Program-made: the position numbers and the translations under genes
Part shown: positions 4,213-61,945 of the stretch, one piece after another
Position numbering within the stretch: the stretch's first letter is position 1
How the letters are laid out: each line of letters opens with the position of its first letter
Notes under the pieces: generated by a model
Seen by the model: the letters and a program-made list of their open reading frames with translations, nothing else
What the model was told of the DNA's origin: nothing
Databases searched by the model: none
Source of the DNA: Piedraia hortae CBS 480.64
Taxonomy: Eukaryota
Direction: 5' to 3'
NCBI GenBank assembly: GCA_010093745.1
Contig: MU005981.1
Span: 62,001-126,000 of the forward strand
Length of the DNA stretch: 64,000 nucleotides

Positions 4213-4901
4213 TTACCAGAAGTTGTCCATGTCTGCACTGTAGGTATTTGGCTCTCGTGGGTGAGAGTGCACAGCGACCCGAAGAGGGCGGAGCGATAGA
4301 CGGAAACAGGGACAGGAAAGATGTAGATGTGTGTAAGTCAAAATACCAGTTGCAGCATGGTAGTGTGAATGACTATTTTCAATAAGGGGACGTTCAGAAT
4401 GAAAATTCTGTTCCGGTGGGCCGGTGACGTCACGTCGTACACTAGCGGGGCGTATTCACCATGTCACATATGACATGACCCTGAGGGAAAACCTCTGTGA
4501 GGCAAAAACCTAGGGTGCAGCTGGTAGTGTAGGAGGTATCGCTGACTTGCTATGCAAGTGCCCTGCATACGCGCTAGCGGCGATGCTTGAATCCAACATG
4601 CACCTGTCGTCATCAAGGCTTGCAATCCCTCGTCAAGTTCTTGAATCCCCCACATGTTAGAACGAATCATCAGTTGGAGGCAAGCCTTTAGAGCGTTATG
4701 CAAGATGTTAATCTTGCGTTCACGATGTTCCAATTCGTCCCTCATTTTCTGACGGCGGCGGGCTTGGCATAGGGCGTTTCTCGTCTTACGTTCCTCTTGC
4801 GACATGGCGGTGCGTCCACCGCGAGTAGGGGCGTTGAGGTTGTCACAAATGGAACTGGGAATGGGCATAGCATTGCCAAAGTTGACAGAGTTGACAGACA
4901 T
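4213..4901 (-). pseudogene. Small bZIP-like gene interrupted by a family-A solo LTR
   Basis: ORF has a basic region EERKTRNALCQARRRQKM followed by a heptad-like ELEHRERKINILHNALKACL. The frame runs into the LTR at 4598. Removing the LTR plus one TSD gives ...MTTGADMDNFW*. Confidence 0.5.
4239..4598 (-). mobile_element. Solo LTR, family A
   Basis: 360 bp, TGTAG...CAACA termini, perfect TSD TGCAC (4234-4238 / 4599-4603). Reverse complement of the copies at 15107 and 24611. Confidence 0.92.
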
Positions 4902-14762: not shown

Positions 14763-15106
14763 GCAGGATTAGACTAAAAGTTATGATTTTATCATGATGC
14801 AAACATGCGATCTTTTATCCTTGACAATGCTGAGCATGAGAAGTCATTCGACTTCAAATTTTACTTGTCCACCAGGACTATTCAATGGAGCGGGTAAATG
14901 GATGAATGTGAACATCACAGTCCGAGAAACGGCCAAAGACTCTGCAGCGTTTTCATCTAAGCAAGCACAAGGTTGAGGACCACTTGTCCTTGTTGCTCAG
15001 AATGTTCATCAAAGCTCACTACTGGGTACACGCTCTCTCTCTCTACAGCTTCCAATCTCATAGCTAGATAGCGCCTACTGTGGTAGAGTCTTCAACAACC
15101 CGTTCC

Positions 15107-15587
15107 TGTAGGATACAAGCAGCGCCGCTAGCGCGTATGCGGGGCACTTGCATAGCAAGTCAGCGATATCTCCCACACTACCAGCTGCACCCTAGGTTTT
15201 TCTCTTACAGAGGTTTTCCCTCAAGGTCATGTCATATGTGACATGGTGAATGCGCTCTGCTAGTGTACGACGTGACGTCACCGGCCCACCGGTACAGAAT
15301 TTTCATTCTGAACGTCCCCTCATTTGAGATAGATAGAGTTAAAGGGGACGAACTGATAGTGTGAGTACACTAAGACATGAATAATAGTATTGTTATATGT
15401 GCTGCATACATGAAAGGACGCTGTACATGGCCATCACGTGACACATCCTTCAACTGATAGTCATATTCACATTGTCATATCGACACTGGTATCGACTCAT
15501 ATCCATCTGCATCTGTCCTGTCCCTGTTTCCGCTTCGTCCTTTTTGGGCCGCTGCGCACTCTCATCCACGGGAGCCCAATCGCTACA
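15107..15587 (+). mobile_element. Family-A LTR containing a nested family-D mini-element
   Basis: TGTAGG...CTACA termini. Colinear with 24611-24969 apart from the insertion at 15337-15455. Confidence 0.9.
15337..15455. mobile_element. 119-bp family-D mini-element nested in LTR A
   Basis: AGTTAAAGG...CCTTCAACT, TSD GATAG (15332-15336 / 15456-15460). Absent from the other family-A copies, which show the empty site. Confidence 0.88.
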
Positions 15588-21510: not shown

Positions 21511-22884
21511 TCACCCCTTTCTCTTCTCCAAACTCTCCTTCAACTCAACAACAGCATGGAACACCGCTCTGGCAATCTCATCCTTCACCAAATTCTCTCC
21601 GCCCTCCCTCCTTCCTAACCTGTCCGAATGCCACCTCAAAACCTCCTTCTTCAGCAGCTTTCCCAGTTTGCCCATCGCATCCCCATCTCCATGGTAAAAA
21701 CCAAGCTCCACCCTTCCGCGCCCAAGATCCCTATACCGCGGTCGCAGGCCTACAGCACGGAGGAAAAATGCCTGCGTGTTAGCTTTTATCACCGTTTCGG
21801 TTGACCAGGTTGGGTTGAGATAGGATGCTTCGCGGAGGGGCGAGGCGTGGAGGTTATATGTTGGGTATGGGATTACGGAGGAGTTGGGCGGGAGATTAGA
21901 CCATGCCGCTTCGTAGGCTTTAAAGAGAGTGTCTGGGGAGATTGGGTGGTTTTTGTCCTTTTTGAAAGATGGATTGTCGAAATTCCTCGTGGGTTTGTTG
22001 GGGCGGGGAGGTGTTGTAAAGGTATCACGTGTGTGTAATTTAGGGACTCGCTGTCGGGGTGGCGGACTGTGATTATCGTTGTCGTCGGGGTTGAAGGCTG
22101 GAGGGGGCGTGCGGTGAGTGTGTGGATTTGAGGAGCGTGCATTACCGCTCGGATGCTCGGTTGTGTGATTATGATGAGTTTTAGGGGAGAGGCGACATGT
22201 TCTTTTCCAGCTAGGGCCAGTGTTTTTGTGTTCGTCATCTCCGGGAGGTTTTTGACCGCGATGCGCGTGGTTGACTGGAGGAGTGTTATGGGAACCTTGG
22301 CCGCCTACTGGATCCGGTGTCCTATAACTATTTTTGCAAGATGAACCATCGTTGGTATTTGCACTTTGTTTCGCTTTTTTGCCGGCGCCGGCGTTCGCTT
22401 GCTCATCATCGCCGTAGTCCCGTTTTCTTTTCTTGCCGCCGTTGAAGAGGTTTGCCGAAGGGTCATTCGCCGACGTGGTATCAGAATTGTGACCACGGGC
22501 ATACCCTTGACGTTGGGCGTAGAACGCCTGCATGCCTGACGGAGGATCACACCAACCTGCAAGGTTCCATCCATAAGACTGTCTATGATGGTCCATTCCG
22601 AAAGGTCTCACATCGCGAAACCGGCATTCTGCTCTGGCCAGCATGAACTCCGCGTGTTCCAGCTCGCATAATAACCGCTGCAGGTTATCATATATCTTAC
22701 CTGGGTGATCCAGAATGGTGCGCATCGAAGCTTTGATTCTCTGAACAATTCTGTCCCACCCACGCAAGTTCTGCAGGCAATGCTGGATATATACTTCCTT
22801 GTCCGACATAAAGAAACTTTGGTGACTACCTGCAGCGTGGTTAAAGAAGTTGAAGATGTGCTGCGTGCCGTTGCTATACGCCAT
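21511..22884 (-). CDS. Hypothetical protein with NFKBIL1-like/J-domain-like C-terminal helical domain
   Basis: Intact ~457-aa ORF with a low-complexity middle, a KKRKR NLS-like motif and C-terminal YEAAWS.L...IPYP...LKKEVLRWHSDRL (RWHPDK-type motif). Confidence 0.6.
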   Translation of the reverse strand: MAYSNGTQHIFNFFNHAAGSHQSFFMSDKEVYIQHCLQNLRGWDRIVQRIKASMRTILDHPGKIYDNLQRLLCELEHAEFMLARAECRFRDVRPFGMDHHRQSYGWNLAGWCDPPSGMQAFYAQRQGYARGHNSDTTSANDPSANLFNGGKKRKRDYGDDEQANAGAGKKAKQSANTNDGSSCKNSYRTPDPVGGQGSHNTPPVNHAHRGQKPPGDDEHKNTGPSWKRTCRLSPKTHHNHTTEHPSGNARSSNPHTHRTPPPAFNPDDNDNHSPPPRQRVPKLHTRDTFTTPPRPNKPTRNFDNPSFKKDKNHPISPDTLFKAYEAAWSNLPPNSSVIPYPTYNLHASPLREASYLNPTWSTETVIKANTQAFFLRAVGLRPRYRDLGRGRVELGFYHGDGDAMGKLGKLLKKEVLRWHSDRLGRREGGENLVKDEIARAVFHAVVELKESLEKRKG

Positions 22885-23543
22885 GATCGTGCAACGCAAA
22901 AATTACGCCAACGGAAGGGTTTTGCTTGGCACACTTTTGTTGCGCTGGCGGTCAACTGCGATTCGAACTATTTTAGAGGCGTCTCAATTGCGCATGCGTG
23001 ATGTGGCTTTGCCAGTTGTTATGGAAGAAAGTGCGCGGGATCGTTGTGTCAAAATGAACGAGAGGGGCCTTTTGTGTAGTAAGCTTCGTGCTAGACCGGA
23101 AAGGCACTTCAAAACTTTTCGAGGTGTCCGATTTCAAGACTGGCGCTTATCTTGGTAGACAGTCTGGTGGACGGTGCTATGTGGTAGCCGGGATCTGAAT
23201 ATGAATGTTTTATATATGCCAAATGTTGTAAAGCAGCAGCACGTCACAGGTTTGTTCGTGTACATGCGTAACTACAACTACAAGAACAACAAAGATGTAC
23301 TTGACCAAAGGCATTGATCATTCTCCACGGATGGTTTCGTAGCGACTTGCACGGCACCAACATGGATATTTTCATATCGGACCCAAACTCCTAGGGTGTA
23401 AAGACAATGAACGAAAAGCATGTGCTATGTTGAACTGCTAATCGTGACAAAAGATTGATATTTGGCTTGGTCCAGACACCGCTAAAGAAAAGAGCCACCA
23501 GCGGAAAAGCCCATCAACGAATAGTGGAGCATGTTTGATTCCT

Positions 23544-23980
23544 TTCAAAAGAAAACTTTACCCTTGAGGATCAGTACGATGAAACCATTCTTGCCATTGG
23601 TAACGACTATTGTCGGTCCACACGAGATGCAATTGTGGTGTTTCAGCTGATCAGGAAACCTCAACATCTTTCGGCTGACCATGACCCATCTTCCATTATT
23701 GTAACCAAATGATCCCAAGACATAAGATTCAATGTCTCAGAGCATTAAAAGGGCTCTAGTTGAGGCAGGTGAGTTCGCCTGCGCCTGGCGCAGCTAAGTT
23801 CTACCAGACACCGACCGAAACGAAGACGAGAAGAGAGCTGCATCCTCAAAGTAATGGTTCTAGAGTGCCGATTTACCCAACACTTTATCGATATTGAAAC
23901 AATATTGCGATCTTTTTCAATATCCCATACGCATATGAGGTGGTTTTCGTCCAGTGTGTATAATGTTCGCCCACCTATCG
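23544..23980 (-). pseudogene. C-terminal fragment of an NLR (NACHT-WD40) paralogue
   Basis: GGRTLYTLDENHLICVWDIEK resembles DGRMLYTHDSKDCISEWDIEK of the 57-kb gene. RWVMVSRKMLRFPDQLKHHNCISCGPTIVVTNGKNGFIVLILKGKVFF* resembles its terminal WITVNGRKM...PDQLL...SCGRTM...GFTVLYFTGKDSF*. Confidence 0.75.
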
Positions 23981-24610: not shown

Positions 24611-24969
24611 TGTTGGATTCAAGCATCGCCGCTAGCGCGTATGCAGGGCAATTGCATAGCAAGTCAGCGATACCTCCTACACTACCAGCTGCACCCTAGG
24701 TTTTTCCCTTACAGAGGTTTTCCCTCAAGGTCATGTCATATGTGACATGGTGAATGCGCTCTGCTAGTGTACGACGTGACGTCACCGGCCCACCGGTACA
24801 GAATTTTCATTCTGAACGTCCCCTCATTTGATATAGTCATTCACACTACCATACTGCAACTGGTATTTGACTCACATACATCTACATCTTTGCTGTCCCT
24901 GATTCCGTCAACTGCTCCGTCCTCTTTGGGTCGCTGTGCACTCTTACCCACGAGAGCCAAATCTCTACA
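24611..24969 (+). mobile_element. Solo LTR, family A (full length)
   Basis: 359 bp TGTTGG...CTACA, close to the reverse complement of 4239-4598. Flanks GTCGT/ATCCT match only 3/5. Confidence 0.9.
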
Positions 24970-26135: not shown

Positions 26136-26387
26136 CCCCTCCTCCCCCTTCTCCTCAATCCTTATTTCTGTATTCGTCACCAAACTGGGTGGAGAGAGAC
26201 CCAGATTATGTGTAGCGTCGAGGGTACCCGCACTGTGCGAATGAAGCCTAATCGTTAGTTAAACACTTGTAGATGGACCGCATGCCCTTCTAGGAAGAGC
26301 TATGATGCATTCCAGCTCCATCGGCATAAGAGAAATAATAATAATAATAATAAAAATGACAGCAGGCTTGCCGCACGGACACAGACT

Positions 26388-26680
26388 CTGATCAGTCCAA
26401 AACTTAGAGTTGTCTTTCAAATTGGAATCCACAAGAAAGTCTCGGACGGATTCGTGATAGATCTGAACCTTAGATCCTAAATTCTCCCTGCCATTTGAGA
26501 AATCAATCACCGAGCTCAAGGGTTTGTGAGCGCATGAAACGACCACATTGTCTTCTTCCCCTAAGAGTTTTGTAAGCGCAAAGATGGCGAGTGTGGAGTT
26601 TAGACTATTAATGGGTTTGATAACTTGGCTGAACTAGTCCAGCCACTCCAACTCGAGTTCTGTAGCCTGTTCCAGAATCT
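26388..26680 (-). pseudogene. NACHT winged-helix region fragment of the same NLR family
   Basis: ILEQATELELEWLD*FSQVIKPINSLNSTL...KPLSSVIDF...IYHESVRDFLVDSNLKDNSKFWTDQ aligns with ILKQAADLDKEWLQWFSQVIKPIALLHSTL...IYHESFRDFLMNSSLKDHPEFWIDQ. Confidence 0.85.
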
Positions 26681-27136
26681 CCAAGTGATTCTGGACAACG
26701 CTTTCGCAGTGGGGAAGACTTCTAACATCGCAACCACGCATACATCGAATCCGAAGATGACTTACACAAGTTACCATGGAGTCTCTGCCCATTGCTATGT
26801 TGGATACTGAAACGCTTGGAGCCTTTTGAGGGTGCAGGGATCCATCTTGAACGGGTTATCAGCATTACTGACCTTCAGCTCACGAAAAAGCACCACATTT
26901 ACAACGATGATAATGCTGGCCCAAATATTGATTGAAAAGGGGTATACAGGCACTTTCCACTAGCAAAACTAGGTCACCAATACATAGCCTCCAATTCATT
27001 AAATTTAACCACACTCTCTAAACATTTCCACCCAAGCACTGCCCATGCCCTTGAAGAAAGACTTGAAACCTTCCATCCCTCAGCAGACCCAAAGATATTT
27101 CCAGAACGTGTGCGGGTAGCAAAAATTTAAAAAAAT

Positions 27137-49589: not shown

Positions 49590-50430
49590 GGGAAGTGCAT
49601 GCTGTGGGAAAGACTTCTACCTGGATCTTTCCGCTTGCACACATTGCGGCGAAGCTTGTTTTCCAGCAAGGCTATGCATCTGCCCAGGAGGACATCGTGT
49701 GTCTCACCTTCAACATTCCAATACTGAGACCTGACTTTGATATTGGAATCTGCTAGAAAGTCACGGAAAGATTCGTGATATATTCGTACCGTAGCCCGTG
49801 CATCTGCTTTCAGCTCTTTACCGTTTGGAAACTCGACCGCCGAAATCAAAGGCTTTAGCGTTTCGGGAACAATCATATTGTCTCCTTCTCCCAGCATACC
49901 TGTAATTGCTGGGATGGTAAGTGGAAAGTGTAGAAGAGAAACCGGATTTATCACTCGGTGGAATTGGCTGAGCCACTCAGGGCCCTGTCTAGCAGCTTGG
50001 TCCAGAATGTTGCAGTAAATTTCAGTCAGCGCTTTAGAGCCAGTGAAGCTGAGTCGGTCCACCCACTGTTGTAGTTGCCGCCGTGGACAGTTGATCATTT
50101 CTCGGAATACAAGGAAGCGTTGATGAACTGTGGCTGCGATATTTCAACCAGTTTATTAACCACGACTTCTTCTGGCCAATCATCATCTAGTCCATCATAG
50201 CTAGAATCATTTCTGCTCTGTTCGCGAAGCTTGGCCAACTCATTGCGACAGAACAATCTCAAGTCATCTTTTATGGTACTCGATTGCCAACGCTCAAGCC
50301 TCTCGTGCTGGAGATCCTTGCCCACCAATTGTCGCAGCTGATCCCCGATCTTATCGTCTGACCGGCTCGTCACAATCACCCTAAGGTTCATGGAAGTAGG
50401 AGAACCGAGTTTTGTCCAAAGGGTCATGGC
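49590..50430 (-). pseudogene. Frameshifted NACHT-domain fragment of the NLR family
   Basis: MNLRVIVTSRSDDKIGD...ERWQSSTIKDDLR and ATVRIYHESFRDFL are nearly identical to the 59-60 kb NACHT. Frameshift near 50110, no P-loop and no WD40. Confidence 0.9.
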
Positions 50431-54364: not shown

Positions 54365-57300
54365 GTTAGGCTGACCAATCCAGTGCTTCCCTTCAGAATT
54401 TCAGCAAAAACACATGACCATAAATCCCTCCAAGTTCTTGCGCAGATGCCGGTCATGGGAAATGCTCATGGAATGCCGGCGCACCCAACGCCACCACAGA
54501 GCGTGGAGACATCCACAGCACGACGCGGCCGAGGACTGGCATCTGCCTCTAAAGGAATTCAACAAGGCCCTTCCTCATATGGTCTGGCGGCGATGACCAC
54601 ATCGTGCATTGCATTGGTTCTTCCTATGGAAACATTCTCGGCAGGTTCAAGAAAAAGCTACAGATGTAGCGGCACGGACCGACTGTATCGCTCGGTAAAG
54701 GAACCGGGACCGTTGGAAATTTGAACAAAGTGAATTTCATTCAGAAGGAGTCTTTGCCCGTGAAATATAGCACAGTAAAACCAGTCTCTTCATTGGAAAA
54801 AGTCATTGTTCGCCCGCACGAGAACCAATAATCGCCTAGCAGCTGATCAGGTTTGCGCGAGGTGATACTGCCAGGCGTAGAAGGTGGACCCGGAGTCGAC
54901 CGCGGAAGGTCGTCATCGCCGTCGCCGGTGGCGAAACCCACAGCCCTTCTTTGTGGAGTGCTGCTAGTTGAGGTCGCTCTGGACATTGTTCCACCAGTGA
55001 TCGACCGTGGCTTATACTCCTTTCTTGTTGTCATGAAGGACGGCTTGGCTATATTAGCTGGCTCGCTAATGTTGGCGAAGGATAATTTCACCCGAAATTC
55101 TTGCATGGCCTTAATCACCAAGCGTCCATCTTCCTTGGCCTTACGGAATATGGCCTCGGTGTTATCAATGGTCTTGCTATCCCGAGGTGCTTTGAAAACC
55201 TGTTCGATTTCCTCGAATCTGTCGACCATTTCAGTAAATGCAGATATGAAGTTCTCTGCACTATTGTCAAGGCTTCCTGCCATCTTCCGACCATTGACAG
55301 TGATCCAATTTTCCCTGTGGTCCAAGGCCCAGATTTGCCGGTTTTCGGACAGCGAAGTTGAGCTTGTCGAGGCGGAAGAGTCCGCCTGCGTTTGGGGCTG
55401 ATTGTCTTCGTTGGCTGCTAAGCTGTCCACGACAGGCAGGAACCTTAACGGCACAAAGCGACCATCGCTAAGTATCGAACCAGACGTATAGCCCGGATCG
55501 AGTGTGCGCACAATGCACGCCTTTTCAATGTCCCATTCAGATATGCAATCCTTGGAGTCATGAGTGTAGAGCATCCGACCATCTGCTGAGAAACATGCCT
55601 CATACGCCGGATGATCAAATGTCTGTACCAGCGGGGTTTGTGACTTCCATTCCTAGATCCTTATTTTCCAATCTTCTGATGCCGATGCAAAGTTCTGCCC
55701 ATCTGGAGAAATCGCTATATCGTGGACTTCTTCCATATGACCGGGGAAGTTTTCTCGCAGAAGTCCACGTTCCAGATCAATAGCCCATATCTGACCGTCG
55801 CGCAAACCGCAAAGGAGTGTTTTTTTGTCTGCGGATAACGCAAGAGCATTAGCATGGCCCGGTCTGTCCTTTAGCTCTCTCAAAGCATTCGCTTCCAGAT
55901 CCCAAATCAACACCACGTTTTTTGGGGGATCGTCCGTGCATGCAACAACCACGAAACGACTGTCCGATGAGATCAGGATCTGGTGATTAATATTTGAAAG
56001 CCTTTCATCTGTTAACCGCCGTTCGCAAATTCGCGTTTCAATGTTCCAAACTCTGAGCTGGTTATCTTTAGTCAATGAAGCGAGTGATCGTCCATCCGTT
56101 GACAGTGCAAGAGGAACGGGACCAGTCGGACGCTGCGGGCTCTTCAAGGCTAGATCCAGGTCCAGCTGTTTAATTTGTCCANNNNNNNNNNGTTAGGCTG
56201 ACCAATCCAGTGCTTCCCTTCAGAATTTCAGCAAAAACACATGACCATAAATCCCTCCAAGTTCTTGCGCAGATGCCGGTCATGGGAAATGCTCATGGAA
56301 TGCCGGCGCACCCAACGCCACCACAGAGCGTGGAGACATCCACAGCACGACGCGGCCGAGGACTGGCATCTGCCTCTAAAGGAATTCAACAAGGCCCTTC
56401 CTCATATGGTCTGGCGGCGATGACCACATCGTGCATTGCATTGGTTCTTCCTATGGAAACATTCTCGGCAGGTTCAAGAAAAAGCTACAGATGTAGCGGC
56501 ACGGACCGACTGTATCGCTCGGTAAAGGAACCGGGACCGTTGGAAATTTGAACAAAGTGAATTTCATTCAGAAGGAGTCTTTGCCCGTGAAATATAGCAC
56601 AGTAAAACCAGTCTCTTCATTGGAAAAAGTCATTGTTCGCCCGCACGAGAACCAATAATCGCCTAGCAGCTGATCAGGTTTGCGCGAGGTGATACTGCCA
56701 GGCGTAGAAGGTGGACCCGGAGTCGACCGCGGAAGGTCGTCATCGCCGTCGCCGGTGGCGAAACCCACAGCCCTTCTTTGTGGAGTGCTGCTAGTTGAGG
56801 TCGCTCTGGACATTGTTCCACCAGTGATCGACCGTGGCTTATACTCCTTTCTTGTTGTCATGAAGGACGGCTTGGCTATATTAGCTGGCTCGCTAATGTT
56901 GGCGAAGGATAATTTCACCCGAAATTCTTGCATGGCCTTAATCACCAAGCGTCCATCTTCCTTGGCCTTACGGAATATGGCCTCGGTGTTATCAATGGTC
57001 TTGCTATCCCGAGGTGCTTTGAAAACCTGTTCGATTTCCTCGAATCTGTCGACCATTTCAGTAAATGCAGATATGAAGTTCTCTGCACTATTGTCAAGGC
57101 TTCCTGCCATCTTCCGACCATTGACAGTGATCCAATTTTCCCTGTGGTCCAAGGCCCAGATTTGCCGGTTTTCGGACAGCGAAGTTGAGCTTGTCGAGGC
57201 GGAAGAGTCCGCCTGCGTTTGGGGCTGATTGTCTTCGTTGGCTGCTAAGCTGTCCACGACAGGCAGGAACCTTAACGGCACAAAGCGACCATCGCTAAGT

Positions 57301-58007
57301 ATCGAACCAGACGTATAGCCCGGATCGAGTGTGCGCACAATGCACGCCTTTTCAATGTCCCATTCAGATATGCAATCCTTGGAGTCATGAGTGTAGAGCA
57401 TCCGACCATCTGCTGAGAAACATGCCTCATACGCCGGATGATCAAATGTCTGTACCAGCGGGGTTTGTGACTTCCATTCCTAGATCCTTATTTTCCAATC
57501 TTCTGATGCCGATGCAAAGTTCTGCCCATCTGGAGAAATCGCTATATCGTGGACTTCTTCCATATGACCGGGGAAGTTTTCTCGCAGAAGTCCACGTTCC
57601 AGATCAATAGCCCATATCTGACCGTCGCGCAAACCGCAAAGGAGTGTTTTTTTGTCTGCGGATAACGCAAGAGCATTAGCATGGCCCGGTCTGTCCTTTA
57701 GCTCTCTCAAAGCATTCGCTTCCAGATCCCAAATCAACACCACGTTTTTTGGGGGATCGTCCGTGCATGCAACAACCACGAAACGACTGTCCGATGAGAT
57801 CAGGATCTGGTGATTAATATTTGAAAGCCTTTCATCTGTTAACCGCCGTTCGCAAATTCGCGTTTCAATGTTCCAAACTCTGAGCTGGTTATCTTTAGTC
57901 AATGAAGCGAGTGATCGTCCATCCGTTGACAGTGCAAGAGGAACGGGACCAGTCGGACGCTGCGGGCTCTTCAAGGCTAGATCCAGGTCCAGCTGTTTAA
58001 TTTGTCC
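54365..58007. other. Apparently identical 1816-bp direct duplication (54365-56180 = 56192-58007) separated by an 11-N gap
   Basis: Identical translated ORFs at a 1827-nt offset. The junction is the N run 56181-56191. Confidence 0.95.
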
Positions 58008-61000
58008 AAAAACATCCCCCGTCCAGATTGTCTTCCCGTCGGGCGATGATGTCATAGCTGTGACGCCGCTTCCCAATTCCAGTCCCATCGGCTCTTGTTG
58101 CGTTTGAAAGTCGTAGAGATAAAGACGAAACGTGTCACCAAAAAGAACTTTCTGGCTGCCTGGCGTAACCATGAGAGGATATTCTCTATGGCGCACTTTC
58201 ATGATGTGCTCAACCTTACGGGTGGTGCAGTGAAACACCGATATTGTGTCATCCCAAGAGCGAAAGACAACGAACTTGCGGTTTGGCGAAATGGCGATGC
58301 GCTCGATAATAGTACCAGTTTGGTATATCCTCTCATGCCCAGCTTGTGGGCTCCATTTCCAGATGTCTGTGGATCCCGACACCAGTGTCTCGCTATCCGA
58401 CGAGAAGTGCAGGCACCACACTGGAGAGTTATGACCCTTAAGCACCCGTCCGGCGCCCTCTTCGGAGTTGTTGTCGGCGTCCCAGATGTAAATCTCGCCG
58501 GTGTCCAAGCCCCAAGCGGCATATCGGCCGTTCGGAGAGACGGAAACGCTTGCTGCAACGCCTGGCAGTTTGATATTAATTGGCCTGGCGTCGTCTTCCA
58601 AGTTCCACCTCCAATAACCTCCGGTCAACTCGGCAATGACCACAATGTCTTTTTCAGGGAACGCTGAAGCGGCGTCGCGAAGATAACCTACTGACGACGT
58701 TTTGACCACACTTATTACAACTTCCGTACGTTTTTCTTCGGTGCCGCTTTCAACATCCCATAGTCGCACTGTGTTGTCCTCGGCAACGGTGACAAGCCGT
58801 CTCCCGTCGATTGAAGGCGTTATCGACAGTATCCTTCCAGTATGCCCCCTCAGGGTTTGCAACTCAAAGCCCCAATCAGTCGCGACTGGCGGCCAAACTT
58901 GCAAAAACTCTTCCATCTCACTTCTGAAGGTATTTCGCACAACACTGTTGCTCGGCGCAAAAGCCAGTGCTGAAAGATATGTCTGAAGCGGTGTATCGCT
59001 GATCAGCTTTCGGTTTGCTGGTACCCATCTTAGCGCATCGGCGACAAAGGCGTGTAGCTTGGGCGAAGATTTCGACTGCGCACGGTTAGGCATACTTTCG
59101 GCAGACTGAAACGGAAGCAATACATACGTCGATGGCCTTTTGCAGCTGCTTTAGGCATACCACCATTCCCCCAAGCTTGTCCAGCCACGCCATTGCCTCT
59201 GTCCAACAAAGAAGAAATGCGCGTAGGAAAAGATCTACTTGTCCACCATCTTTGATTGCCTCGTTGCTATCGATCGCATGGCTGACCCAGTAGCGGCAGG
59301 CGTACTGTACGGACTCTGGGATGCGCTTTTCGACATGCTCTGCGGACACATCTTTGCGTTTCGTTACTAGATCTTTCTGCTTGCAGACGTCGCGGACCAG
59401 CTTTTTCTCGAGCAAGTTTCGACATTTGCTCATGAGAACGCCATGTACTTTCCCTTGATCAATCCAGAATTCAGGATGATCCTTGAGACTAGAATTCATG
59501 AGAAAGTCTCGGAAGGATTCATGATAAATCCGTACCGTGGCCCGAGAGCCTGTTCTCACCTCCTTTCCAGTCGGGAATTCGATTACCGAACTCAAGGGTC
59601 TGAGAGCATTGAAAACAACGCTGTCATCTCCTTCCCCCAGCAGATTCTCCAGTTCCGGAATTGTGAGTGTGGAATGCAGAAGGGCGATTGGTTTGATAAC
59701 TTGACTGAACCATTGAAGCCACTCTTTGTCGAGATCAGCGGCTTGTTTCAGAATACCAGAGTAAATCATGGTCAGTGTATCCGTTTCAGTGAATTTGAGC
59801 CGTTCGACCCACTCTTGAAGCCGCTTTCGTGGATTGTTGCTCACTTCCCTGAATATCGTAGACGCCGCGATGAACAGTGGATTTGATATTTTCACAAGTT
59901 TGTCGACAACGCTTTCCCCTAGCCAGTCATCCTCGAGCTCATAATTACTAGACTCTTTCCTGCTTTGCTCCCGAAGCTTTCTCAGTTCATCGTAATAAAA
60001 CGACCTCAAGTCGCCTTCGATGGTACTCGATTGCCAGTCCTCAAGCCTCTCATGCCGGAGATTCTTGTGCCCCAACTCGCTTAGCTTATCCCCGATTTTG
60101 CTGTCCGACCGGCTCGTCACAATAACTCTTAGGTTCATAGAGGTATGAGCACTAAGCGTCGGCCAAAGTTTCATGGCTTGCGCTATGGCTCCTTTGGCGT
60201 CGCACTCATCGAGAGCATCGACGACAATCGCCCTAACATCGGTTGCAGACCCCGTGTTATACCCTGAAAGCGGTCCCTCGATGAGCATCTTGAACTGCTT
60301 TTCCAAGAGCTTTGAACCTGCATCAGGTGAGTCGCGAGAAGCATTAGCGATCTTGTCGCTGATGCTAGGTATGAAACAGGCCATGTGATGTGCAAGGGTG
60401 GGAAACAGATATTGAGCATTGCTCAGTTCTTCGCCGCCGCCGCGCTTGAAAAAGAAGCTGCCCACCAAATACCCCCGTTTCGCCAGTTCATGAGCAACGG
60501 TTCGAGCTATTGTGGATTTACCCGTCCCAGCTTTCCCGGATAGCCAGAACACCCTTTGCTCATCGTCGGTGGTGGCCCATTTTTGTATAGTCTCTCTGAT
60601 ATCAACTCGGGTACCGTCTAGACACAACTGAAAGTCACCATCCTGGTTGTCGCCACTGTAGTCCATCGAGTCGTAAGCCGCCTTCTAAGCGTATCGAAGA
60701 GTACTAAGGTCTAGGGTTTTTTGAACGCCCTTGACTCCCTGATTGATCTCTGCTTGGGCATTCTCCAACGCCTTCAGCTGTTTGTTGACCCAAGCCCGCT
60801 GCCTTTTCGACACCTCGTCATTCACAGCTTGACGATGAGATTGAACAGTTTCCAGCATCCTGTCGTGTTCGGTCTTGAACTTTGGTATAATTTGACCAGT
60901 CAGAGAGTGTATCATCCGCTCAAACTTGTTCATATCGCAAGTGTGCTGAGCGTGCGCCACGAACGTCAGATTGAGGCTGTAGAGCTTGAGGACATTGAGA

Positions 61001-61632
61001 TACAGACGTTCAATTGCGGGCGTCGGATCAAGCTGGCCGTATATGTCAAAATACACGTCCAACAGGTGGCCTGTATCTAGCACCGTTTCGATTCCTTTCA
61101 GGATCGATTCACTTTGCTCTTGAGTTCTCTGAGCCACCTAGAGAAATAGTGTTATTCAGGTTCGCAGTTGCACAGAATTGCTGCTTACCATCAAGAGAGA
61201 GCGAATGCCGGCCCACGGCAGACTAAGCACGTCCGCTTGGGCATTCGTCGCAACGTCAAACACCGGCGCAAATTGCATGATCTGGCACGCAATCTTTCTC
61301 ATGCTCACGATCCATTTATGGGACCTTTCTGTTTCATTTTGCCCTCTTGAGGTCATGACTCTGGCCGCGTCCCGATCGAGCTCGCTGTTTGAACCAAGCT
61401 GCTCCTCGACAAACTTGCGATCTTCGGGGGCAAGATCATCAAGGGCATCAAGGATCAACTTGTTCTTGTCTCTGAAGGGGTTGTTTGGAGCTGGCCCGGC
61501 AGCTGAAGCATGGACGGGCGATTTGTTTGGTTGCGAGGGCTGTGCTGACGCTGAGGCTTGTATAGCGGATGGGGGCGTGTTCGGGGGCTTAGACCTCCCT
61601 TTCGACTTCCAGCGCTTCGACCCTAAGGGCAT
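56568..61632 (-). pseudogene. NACHT-WD40 fungal NLR (HET-E-like/NWD), 3 exons, two in-frame TAG codons
   Basis: Exons 61632-61189, 61137-59128 and 59075-56568 (introns of 51 and 52 nt with GTAAGC/GTATGT...AG). Helical N-terminal domain (LSLPWAGIRSLL), CLDGTR, Walker A GKAGTGKST, Walker B IVVDALDEC, YHESFRDF, QYACRYW, P.Q.Y.SAL.F.P and >10 WD repeats. TAG at 60685-60687 and 57480-57482 without any frameshift. Confidence 0.9.
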
Positions 61633-61945
61633 GTTGGGTACGATGAACGACGGTCAGGAAGGGGAACTAGGGAATGCGGGACGAGAGAGGCTGTTTCGAG
61701 GGCTTATCGAGTTCAAGGCTGAGGTTTAATGAGGCGGGGTAAGAGTGGCGTGCATGCATGAGCCTACTGTTAGCCTGTGTGAGCGGAGGATTACCTGGCA
61801 AGATATTGGAGAGATGCTGCAGAATGACCTTTTGGTGTAACGTTGGCCACAACAGACAATCGCAACACTTGTTGGATCACGACCGCAATTGCACTCATCA
61901 GTGCAGTCCGCAGCAAGCATTCTGTTGTTCGCTCTAGGCAGGAAA

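Follow-up and report, generated by a model that had tools for sequence, protein, structure and literature searches.

Endogenous pieces of large DNA viruses have been reported from early-diverging fungi and from Rhizophagus (PMC7017919, PMC10640383, PMC13533422), and linear virus-like plasmids, here called virus-like elements (VLEs), from yeasts, Zoopagomycota and Mucoromycota (PMC13348850). No double-stranded DNA (dsDNA) virus of fungi is reported to have been known in 2023 (PMC10640383), and giant viruses are described from zoosporic fungi (PMC13533422). On the host side, putative integrated decoys, mainly kinase domains, are described in NOD-like receptors (NLRs) of Sordariales (PMC12258605). 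Here, we analyse a 64,000-nt stretch of the genome of the ascomycete Piedraia hortae CBS 480.64 (assembly GCA_010093745.1, contig MU005981.1, positions 62,001 to 126,000; hereafter the window, whose own coordinates are used throughout), in which an NLR gene of the NACHT-WD40 type carries a foreign segment of 143 codons in the tail that follows its WD40 repeats. To our knowledge, hardly any ligand of a fungal NLR has been identified, and no giant or other dsDNA virus has been established for Dikarya. We conclude, with moderate confidence, that the segment is an endogenous virus-like fragment inside a young, probably transcribed NLR pseudogene.

Results

A foreign segment lies in frame in the tail of one NACHT-WD40 receptor gene

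The segment (the insert) runs on the minus strand from a GCA codon at 57107 to an AAA codon at 56679 and has no stop in its 143 codons, an outcome reached by only 0.1% of base-shuffled versions (20000 trials). It is flanked by ..GRKM, with the ATG at 57110-57108, on the 5' side and by CCT GAT CAG CTG (PDQL) on the 3' side; its ends read GC.. and ..AA, and GT..AG is absent. When the tail was searched against longer proteins, 16 matched, namely 14 full-length NACHT-WD40 paralogues (P0001-P0012, P0014 and P0015), whose source name is Piedraia hortae CBS 480.64, an unrelated WD40 protein (P0016), and P0013, which matched the insert. The native tail is 38-79% identical to those of the paralogues, none of which (0/14) has the insert; by comparison with them the insert replaces three native codons, since they have three residues in its place, mostly F-K-R or L-K-L, and all read unbroken across the junction (RK[MILV]-[FL]K.-P..). 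Aligned to the window with tblastn, the paralogues are collinear with it from 61632 to 59128 and then from 59075 or 59099, depending on the query, to 57108, where they break off, resuming near 56684-56571. A preliminary description of this DNA, made by reading the letters, had compared the gene with a paralogous relic at about 23.6 kb. Re-read in the window, the relic has the sequence described, ..RWVMVSRKM-LRF-PDQL.., and like the 14 paralogues it lacks the segment.

We compared the window at 56192-61700 with contigs of two public runs, X1 and X2, from two studies. X1 is labelled only 'RNA?' and was treated as RNA since joints that skip introns occur in X1 alone. X2 is a probable DNA run; the best DNA holder may be the assembly's own sample, so that the junction support is not fully independent. 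In each run, an exact contig covers the whole insert and both junctions with no other letters (X1 record 2, 56599-57209, 611 nt; X2 record 10, 56627-57209, 583 nt). Both runs also contain diverged contigs in which 56655 is joined to 57108 or 57109 through 32-36 other letters, and whose minus-strand reading is the short paralogue form; because such joints, foreign letters included, occur in the DNA run too, they represent paralogues and not splicing. Depth in X2 is 15.1 and 16.5 in the insert bins, which is the depth of the single exact contig, and 96-250 over the flanks, which is the sum of many paralogues; the depth in X2 thus gives no sign of a further insert copy at >=90% likeness. Taken together, translation, shuffling and the exact bridging contigs bear out the preliminary description of a stop-free, frame-preserving segment of 143 aa (429 nt) without GT/AG ends; contigs of two runs bridge both of its junctions, and the X1 contig, from a run that behaves as RNA, retains it. 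Neither a signature of repeat-induced point mutation nor a difference in composition that would separate the insert from the host gene was found, and Pfam gave no family for the insert and tail, the sole match being at chance level (E 0.088).

The insert is an internal piece of a protein family of virus-like elements

BLASTP aligned the insert to P0013 (560 aa) with 69/136 identities (51%) over P0013 residues 240-375 (E 1e-37), the alignment starting at the K-M that precedes the insert. A phmmer search with a 144-residue query against 1.84 billion representatives returned 31 proteins at E<=1e-3, 10 of them at E<=1e-10; one is the window's own 277-aa model, and two repeat proteins (P0024 and P0042, with 19 and 8 stretches) were set aside. 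The remaining matches form one family with full-length members of 525-560 aa, in which the matched stretch lies at about residues 240-380. On these alignments, the insert is an internal piece, about residues 240-400 of a donor family of about 540 aa. The preliminary description was therefore right to suspect a captured gene fragment, for which BLASTP, phmmer and the tree described below all found the donor family, and wrong to see in it the N-terminus of another protein: the methionine before the insert is an internal residue in the closest donor relatives and in several other family members.

In a maximum-likelihood tree of the captured stretch (30 rows; P0055, at 13% identity, was excluded beforehand), the insert lies well inside the family, as sister to a clade of P0013, P0018, P0054 and the metagenome locus L001 (support 97/94). 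Given this nesting, the direction of transfer was from the family into the NLR. The end branch of the insert measures 0.59, compared with a stem of 0.26 and tips of 0-0.17 for the sister clade. All seven invariant or near-invariant family positions (F263, F270, F286, E314, P315, K320 and G338 in P0013 numbering) are kept in the insert. No host cellular homologue of the insert was found by phmmer over the representatives or by a word-based search of longer proteins, the latter, which is weak evidence, returning only the window's own model. Within the window, the family is matched by the insert alone, in both copies of a duplicated block described below, and no other element genes were found there. 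An antisense open frame of 184 codons (56674-57228, plus strand) spans the whole insert and has a weak antisense match to L001 only; it is probably a by-product of the codon composition of the sense frame.

An AlphaFold model of P0013, built from a 16-row alignment (mean predicted local distance difference test score, pLDDT, 67.6), has a confident alpha/beta domain at residues 1-230 (pLDDT ~90 over residues 80-190), two long helices at 247-272 and 282-310 (pLDDT 55-70), disorder at 311-463 and a confident helical domain at 465-557. When the first domain was compared with the PDB using Foldseek, 12 of 12 matches at E<=1e-3 were uracil-DNA glycosylases (UDGs), with template-modelling (TM) scores to the target of 0.45-0.58. 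In BFVD, the top three viral matches (E<=1e-3) were UDGs of a giant virus, a herpesvirus and an uncultured marine phage, and giant-virus and poxvirus UDGs came next at E 1e-3 to 2e-3. Sequence similarity to UDGs is marginal (E 0.096), and two weaker leads point the same way. The model thus predicts a UDG fold for the N-terminal domain of the donor. In UDGs the water-activating loop, with its catalytic Asp, has the motif G-Q-D-P-Y; at this loop the family consensus is G-E-R-P-Y, which would make glycosylase activity of the donor family doubtful. The captured part comprises the two-helix hairpin and the first ~70 residues of the acidic Ser/Thr/Pro-rich linker, one G-F-A-acidic motif included, and neither the UDG-like domain nor the helical C-terminal domain is part of the insert. 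That a helical part would be followed by a Ser/Thr/Pro-rich tail had been read from the letters in the preliminary description, and the models, which predict two long helices and then disorder, agree.

The donor family belongs to polymerase-encoding elements with a second piece in the same genome

A scan of metagenome contigs for the donor family yielded seven loci (L001-L007) from 48 pattern matches. The contigs of L001-L003 are 24-28 kb long with 44-49% G+C, and the sequence examined (18.9 kb of L001, 21.6 kb of L002 and 21.1 kb of L003) has dense, intron-free open reading frames (ORFs) on both strands in a conserved gene order. Pfam assigned a family at E<=0.01 to 12 of 26 element ORFs. These include DNA_pol_B in L002 and L003 (E 7.5e-42 and 3.1e-35), Rpb2 domain 6 of RNA polymerase (E 2.7e-16), Rpb1 domain 2 (E 2.1e-06), DUF5906 together with P-loop families in a 447-aa ORF, which indicates a primase-helicase-like ATPase and which PHROGs lists as a DNA primase, NADAR plus RNase H, and a 3CxxC zinc ribbon. 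The nearest solved structures to the element polymerase are archaeal B-family polymerases and Pol alpha. The match of the Rpb2-like protein is confined to the catalytic C-terminal part. When two large element ORFs were searched against PDB sequences, the yield was at most weak beta'-like matches, as seen with a 610-aa ORF. PHROGs matched 6 of 23 ORFs, all with replication and transcription genes. L001-L007 also encode a kinase-like protein, and many of their ORFs have no family assignment. Relatives of the donor family were found neither in IMG/VR nor in prokaryotes (one genome per species, 185,579 species), and one member, P0048, is annotated in Exophiala oligosperma. On these gene contents, the donor is here termed an ascomycete-associated dsDNA virus-like element, no more than 'virus-like' since no capsid was found; L001-L007 may represent an undescribed DNA virus-like element of ascomycetes.

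A second piece of such an element lies outside the window, on a 307-kb contig of Piedraia hortae. There, P0053, a fused model of 793 aa, is collinear with four consecutive L001 genes and covers residues 1-172 of the donor family (69-72% identity). Neither P0053 nor any of four donor-family proteins had a Pfam match above chance level. From about residue 172 of the UDG-like family, the P0053 model continues directly with the beginning of the next gene but one; part of the element at this locus is either deleted or concealed in a predicted intron. Between P0013 and P0019, the N-terminal domain is 76% identical and the middle stretch 43%, a split that makes the insert (51%, middle) and P0053 (72%, N-terminal) compatible with one lineage, from which both could derive.

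The host gene is interrupted by two nonsense codons

The host gene has the NACHT domain and the WD40 repeats of a fungal NACHT-WD40 NLR (Table 1), and in the assembly its full-length receptor frame is interrupted by two in-frame TAG codons. The first, in the context ..LRYA-stop-KAAYDS.., stands where P0002 and P0015, the paralogues with the closest-matching motifs, read YAKK or YAKR, that is, lysine. The second, in ..KIRI-stop-EWKSQ.., stands where 13 of the 14 paralogues have the tryptophan of ..IRIW.. or ..IKIW.., the remaining one having no match to the motif. Because of these two codons, no NLR-insert fusion protein could be made from the sequence as it stands, and what the preliminary description took for the full gene is not intact. 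No annotated long protein carries the NLR tail with the insert; the only database model identical to the window is P0017 (277 aa), which starts at Met 57401 and consists of the tail including the insert. We consider the host gene to be probably a young pseudogene. It is probably transcribed: X1 contigs contain the insert, and X1 joints at intron 2 take out a net 52 nt, whereas X2 shows no intron-skipping joints at either intron.

A structure prediction of the tail (mean pLDDT 51.6, a sketch only) places the strands IWALD and WITV ahead of the insert and three more strands behind it; the insert itself is predicted to form helices at tail residues 128-153 and 159-193 (pLDDT 65-82) and to be disordered thereafter. 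In this model, the insertion site would be a loop between two beta-strands of the last blade-like unit.

Surroundings of the gene

The NLR tail, the insert and the second TAG all lie within an 1817-nt block that is present twice, letter for letter, with a gap of 10 N exactly between the copies (Table 1). For the exact insert contig, twofold depth was not seen (15.1 versus 9.9-13.2 for other exact contigs in X2, and 566 versus 312-600 in X1), an observation that speaks weakly for overlapping contig ends and against a true tandem duplication. Likely, then, the duplicate is the same DNA written twice, where overlapping contig ends were scaffolded across the gap.

Elsewhere in the window, three NLR relics sit among housekeeping genes and form a small NLR graveyard. 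No paired helper NLR was found in the window, which contains only these degenerate relics, none of them head to head with the gene. An open frame of 463 codons (21511-22902, minus strand), with a Pro-/His-rich middle and no Pfam family, adjoins the NLR tail relic. A dispersed repeat of ~240-260 nt with 90-96% identity occurs at 4341-4598, 15095-15332 and 24611-24868, and also at 4239-4342 and 24866-24969. Some copies are direct and others inverted, and the repeat probably represents a small mobile element or a solo terminal repeat.

Table 1. Positions of the insert, the host gene and related features in the window
Feature	Position	Strand	Basis
Insert, 429 nt, 143 codons; virus-like-element gene fragment, sense, in frame	56679-57107	-	BLASTP, phmmer, tree, models
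Insert, predicted helical hairpin part	~57098-56901	-	structure model
Insert, predicted disordered Ser/Thr/Pro-rich part	~56900-56679	-	structure model
Host NLR gene, conceptual coding sequence (CDS) of 1653 codons, insert and two internal stops included	56568-61632	-	translation, Pfam, tblastn
Exon 1	61632-61187	-	tblastn segment ends, GT..AG reading, X1 joints
Exon 2	61135-59128	-	tblastn segment ends, GT..AG reading, X1 joints
Exon 3	59075-56571	-	tblastn segment ends, GT..AG reading, X1 joints
Stop codon TGA of host NLR	56570-56568	-	
Intron 1, 51 nt, two in-frame stops inside	61136-61186	-	X1 joint 61135 to 61187 skips 51 nt
Intron 2, 52 nt, GTATGT donor, CTAAC branch-like site, CAG acceptor	59076-59127	-	tblastn break 59128/59075
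N-terminal helical part, no Pfam family	61632-60688	-	
NACHT/NPHP3_N NTPase (PF24883, E 2.8e-28; PF05729, E 8.8e-07)	59086-60684	-	Pfam
WD40 repeats (PF00400, E 2.4e-35, plus many propeller families)	57480-59150	-	Pfam
Tail of 303 codons after WD40 repeats	57479-56571	-	
Native tail before insert: degenerate WD-like strands, disordered linker, strands IWALD and WITV	57108-57479	-	paralogue alignment, model
Native tail after insert: PDQL.., then three protein-ending strands	56571-56678	-	paralogue alignment, model
In-frame TAG no. 1, between N-terminal helical domain and NACHT domain	60685-60687	-	translation
In-frame TAG no. 2, at end of a WD repeat	57480-57482	-	translation
Left copy of 1817-nt exact duplicate	54365-56181	.	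letter-for-letter identity
Gap of 10 N between duplicate blocks	56182-56191		
Right copy of 1817-nt exact duplicate	56192-58008	.	letter-for-letter identity
Second, letter-identical insert copy, in left block	54852-55280	-	sequence identity
Degenerate paralogous NLR tail relic without insert (peptide at 23545-23736)	23548-23844	-	34-40% identity to paralogue tails
Paralogous post-NACHT-region relic	26385-26687	-	tblastn
Paralogous NACHT-region relic	49619-50430	-	tblastn

Discussion

We propose that a break in the tail of one paralogue of an expanded NACHT-WD40 family took up a 429-nt piece of an element gene, in sense orientation and with the frame preserved. Capture would most likely have been by illegitimate end joining, with the Lys-Met at the 5' junction common to both partners and up to 6 nt of microhomology. 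The paralogues read R-K-M or R-K-I/L/V at this junction and many donors K-M-A/S-G; given the shared K-M reading, the 5' junction may share up to six bases, which points to microhomology end joining. At the nucleotide level, L001 is only 53% identical to the insert in aligned codons, so that microhomology at the junction is not readable in the DNA. Two nonsense codons now stand in the host gene, and the fragment would have no present function as part of the NLR; we infer this lack of function, as well as the order of insertion and gene death.

Several observations weigh against this explanation. No capsid, portal, terminase, tail or packaging family was found by Pfam or PHROGs in the examined parts of the element. 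Both TAG codons are known from the assembly alone, and the run in which the insert appears to be transcribed bears only the label 'RNA?'. Without the insert, the host CDS would have 1510 codons and no frameshift, the paralogues having mostly 1507-1518; depth over the insert in X1 is like that of the rest of the gene; and the conserved residues of the donor are all retained. Lastly, an insertion in sense that preserves the frame at both ends is expected in about 1/18 of random insertions, or 1/9 if the stop-free antisense frame is counted as well. These odds hint at selection on the reading frame when the insertion took place. Because the segment was also picked for being open, they are only a hint.

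An alternative possibility is an integrated bait. The NLR would have adopted, as its sensor module, the hairpin and linker from a replication-accessory protein of a virus, and a viral partner or modifier acting on the segment would switch the receptor on; the stops would then be recent, strain-specific or errors of the assembly. The insertion is in sense, in frame and stop-free, its site is in a loop between predicted strands and not within one, the donor's conserved residues are kept, and the gene is otherwise intact and is seen in the run behaving as RNA; putative integrated decoys have, moreover, been proposed for fungal NLRs (PMC12258605). We regard such a role as unlikely, since two nonsense codons lie upstream of the insert, it is a single case among 15 family members, and no intact partner NLR is adjacent, the neighbours being relics only; the long end branch of the insert, relative to the stem and tips of its sister clade, fits relaxed constraint without proving it. 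The integrated sensor or decoy envisaged in the preliminary description is thus unsupported for the present sequence, with its two upstream stops and a donor that is virus-like and not a host target. It is also quite unlikely that the hairpin and linker, from a UDG-fold replication-accessory protein of an undescribed ascomycete dsDNA element, acted as a bait in the past, before the gene was knocked out.

The tail may be a gene of its own, the 277-aa frame of P0017 encoding a small protein in which NLR strands are joined to a viral hairpin. A database model identical to the window exists, and X1 contigs cover its frame, but gene callers yield such a model after an in-frame stop, support for a promoter or transcript start is absent, contigs cannot show transcript ends, and the predicted fold of the tail alone is poor, all of which make a separate gene very unlikely. 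It is highly improbable that the segment was mis-joined to the NLR tail in the assembly: a scaffold gap and an exact duplicate do lie around the region, yet the exact contigs of 611 and 583 nt, each from a run of a different study, reach across both junctions with flanks of >70 nt, and the gap is 497 nt from the nearest junction. We give next to no credence to a retained unusual intron or an intein-like element that is removed from the mature product. The length of the segment is a multiple of three and it is free of stops, as either would require, but it lacks GT..AG ends, it is homologous to the coding region of another family, and X1 retains it in a contig while showing other introns spliced; the joints that skip it carry 32-36 foreign letters in the DNA run as well and come from paralogues. 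A spliceosomal intron in particular was rejected on the GC..AA ends and on the presence of the segment in the exact X1 contig.

With the endogenous virus-like fragment as our favoured explanation, we see the main value of the locus in its donor, a family of polymerase-encoding DNA elements with at least two footprints in the Piedraia hortae genome. DNA of a replicon with its own DNA and RNA polymerases has entered an ascomycete nuclear genome at least twice, and one of these pieces came to lie in the sensor end of an NLR, where its frame is open and in register. The locus connects the question of fungal NLR ligands with that of dsDNA viruses in Dikarya. In a limited literature collection, we found neither a published description of such an element in ascomycetes or Pezizomycotina nor a published virus-derived segment within a fungal NLR. 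Even with a dead copy, the locus provides a named protein family, element contigs, and a pair, the hairpin and the proteins of the element itself, to test against each other. If the insertion is only junk, relic-rich NLR clusters tolerate such insertions, and frame-preserving insertions ought not to be called integrated domains without a check of the whole gene. If the fragment did serve as a bait before the gene was knocked out, it would be evidence that Dikarya are or were infected by polymerase-carrying DNA viruses and that fungal NLRs sense viruses via integrated viral fragments.

The insert resembles endogenous viral elements (EVEs) of fungi in being a virus-like coding sequence in a chromosome, flanked by ordinary host genes, with a second, multi-gene piece elsewhere. 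It is homologous to a gene of a replicon that is virus-like only, no capsid having been found, and it has host sequence of the NLR on both sides, with junctions bridged by contigs of two runs. It differs from described EVEs in its host, an ascomycete, where the cited reports concern zoosporic fungi, early-diverging or unnamed phyla and Glomeromycotina (PMC10640383, PMC13533422, PMC7017919). It also differs in consisting of only 429 nt in frame within a host gene, and in that the capsid and packaging genes of Nucleocytoviricota were not found in the examined parts of its donor element.

Like the integrated decoys of plant NLRs and the putative kinase decoys of Sordariales (PMC12258605), the insert is a foreign segment in an otherwise canonical NLR near the C-terminal sensor part, and it is an extra, non-canonical one, absent from 14/14 paralogues. 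Unlike them, it comes from a virus-like gene and not from a host target, its nearest relatives being genes of virus-like elements, and it is a hairpin with a disordered linker and not a folded domain. The receptor is broken by stops, and a paired helper NLR is absent from the window.

The N-terminal 230 residues of the donor are predicted to fold like the Family-1 UDGs of pox-, herpes- and giant viruses; beyond this UDG-like part, proteins of the donor family also have a hairpin, an extended linker and a C-terminal domain that is helical. The DNA polymerase of VLEs is of the protein-primed type, whereas that of the donor element matches Pfam DNA_pol_B, has archaeal B-family polymerases and Pol alpha as its nearest structures, and is not of that type; the donor element, moreover, has its beta and beta'-like RNA polymerase subunits as separate genes. 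Set against the VLEs of yeasts, Zoopagomycota and Mucoromycota, the element contigs measure 24-42 kb overall, with 44-49% G+C. What the two share is that they are gene-dense dsDNA elements of fungi with their own DNA and RNA polymerases (PMC13348850).

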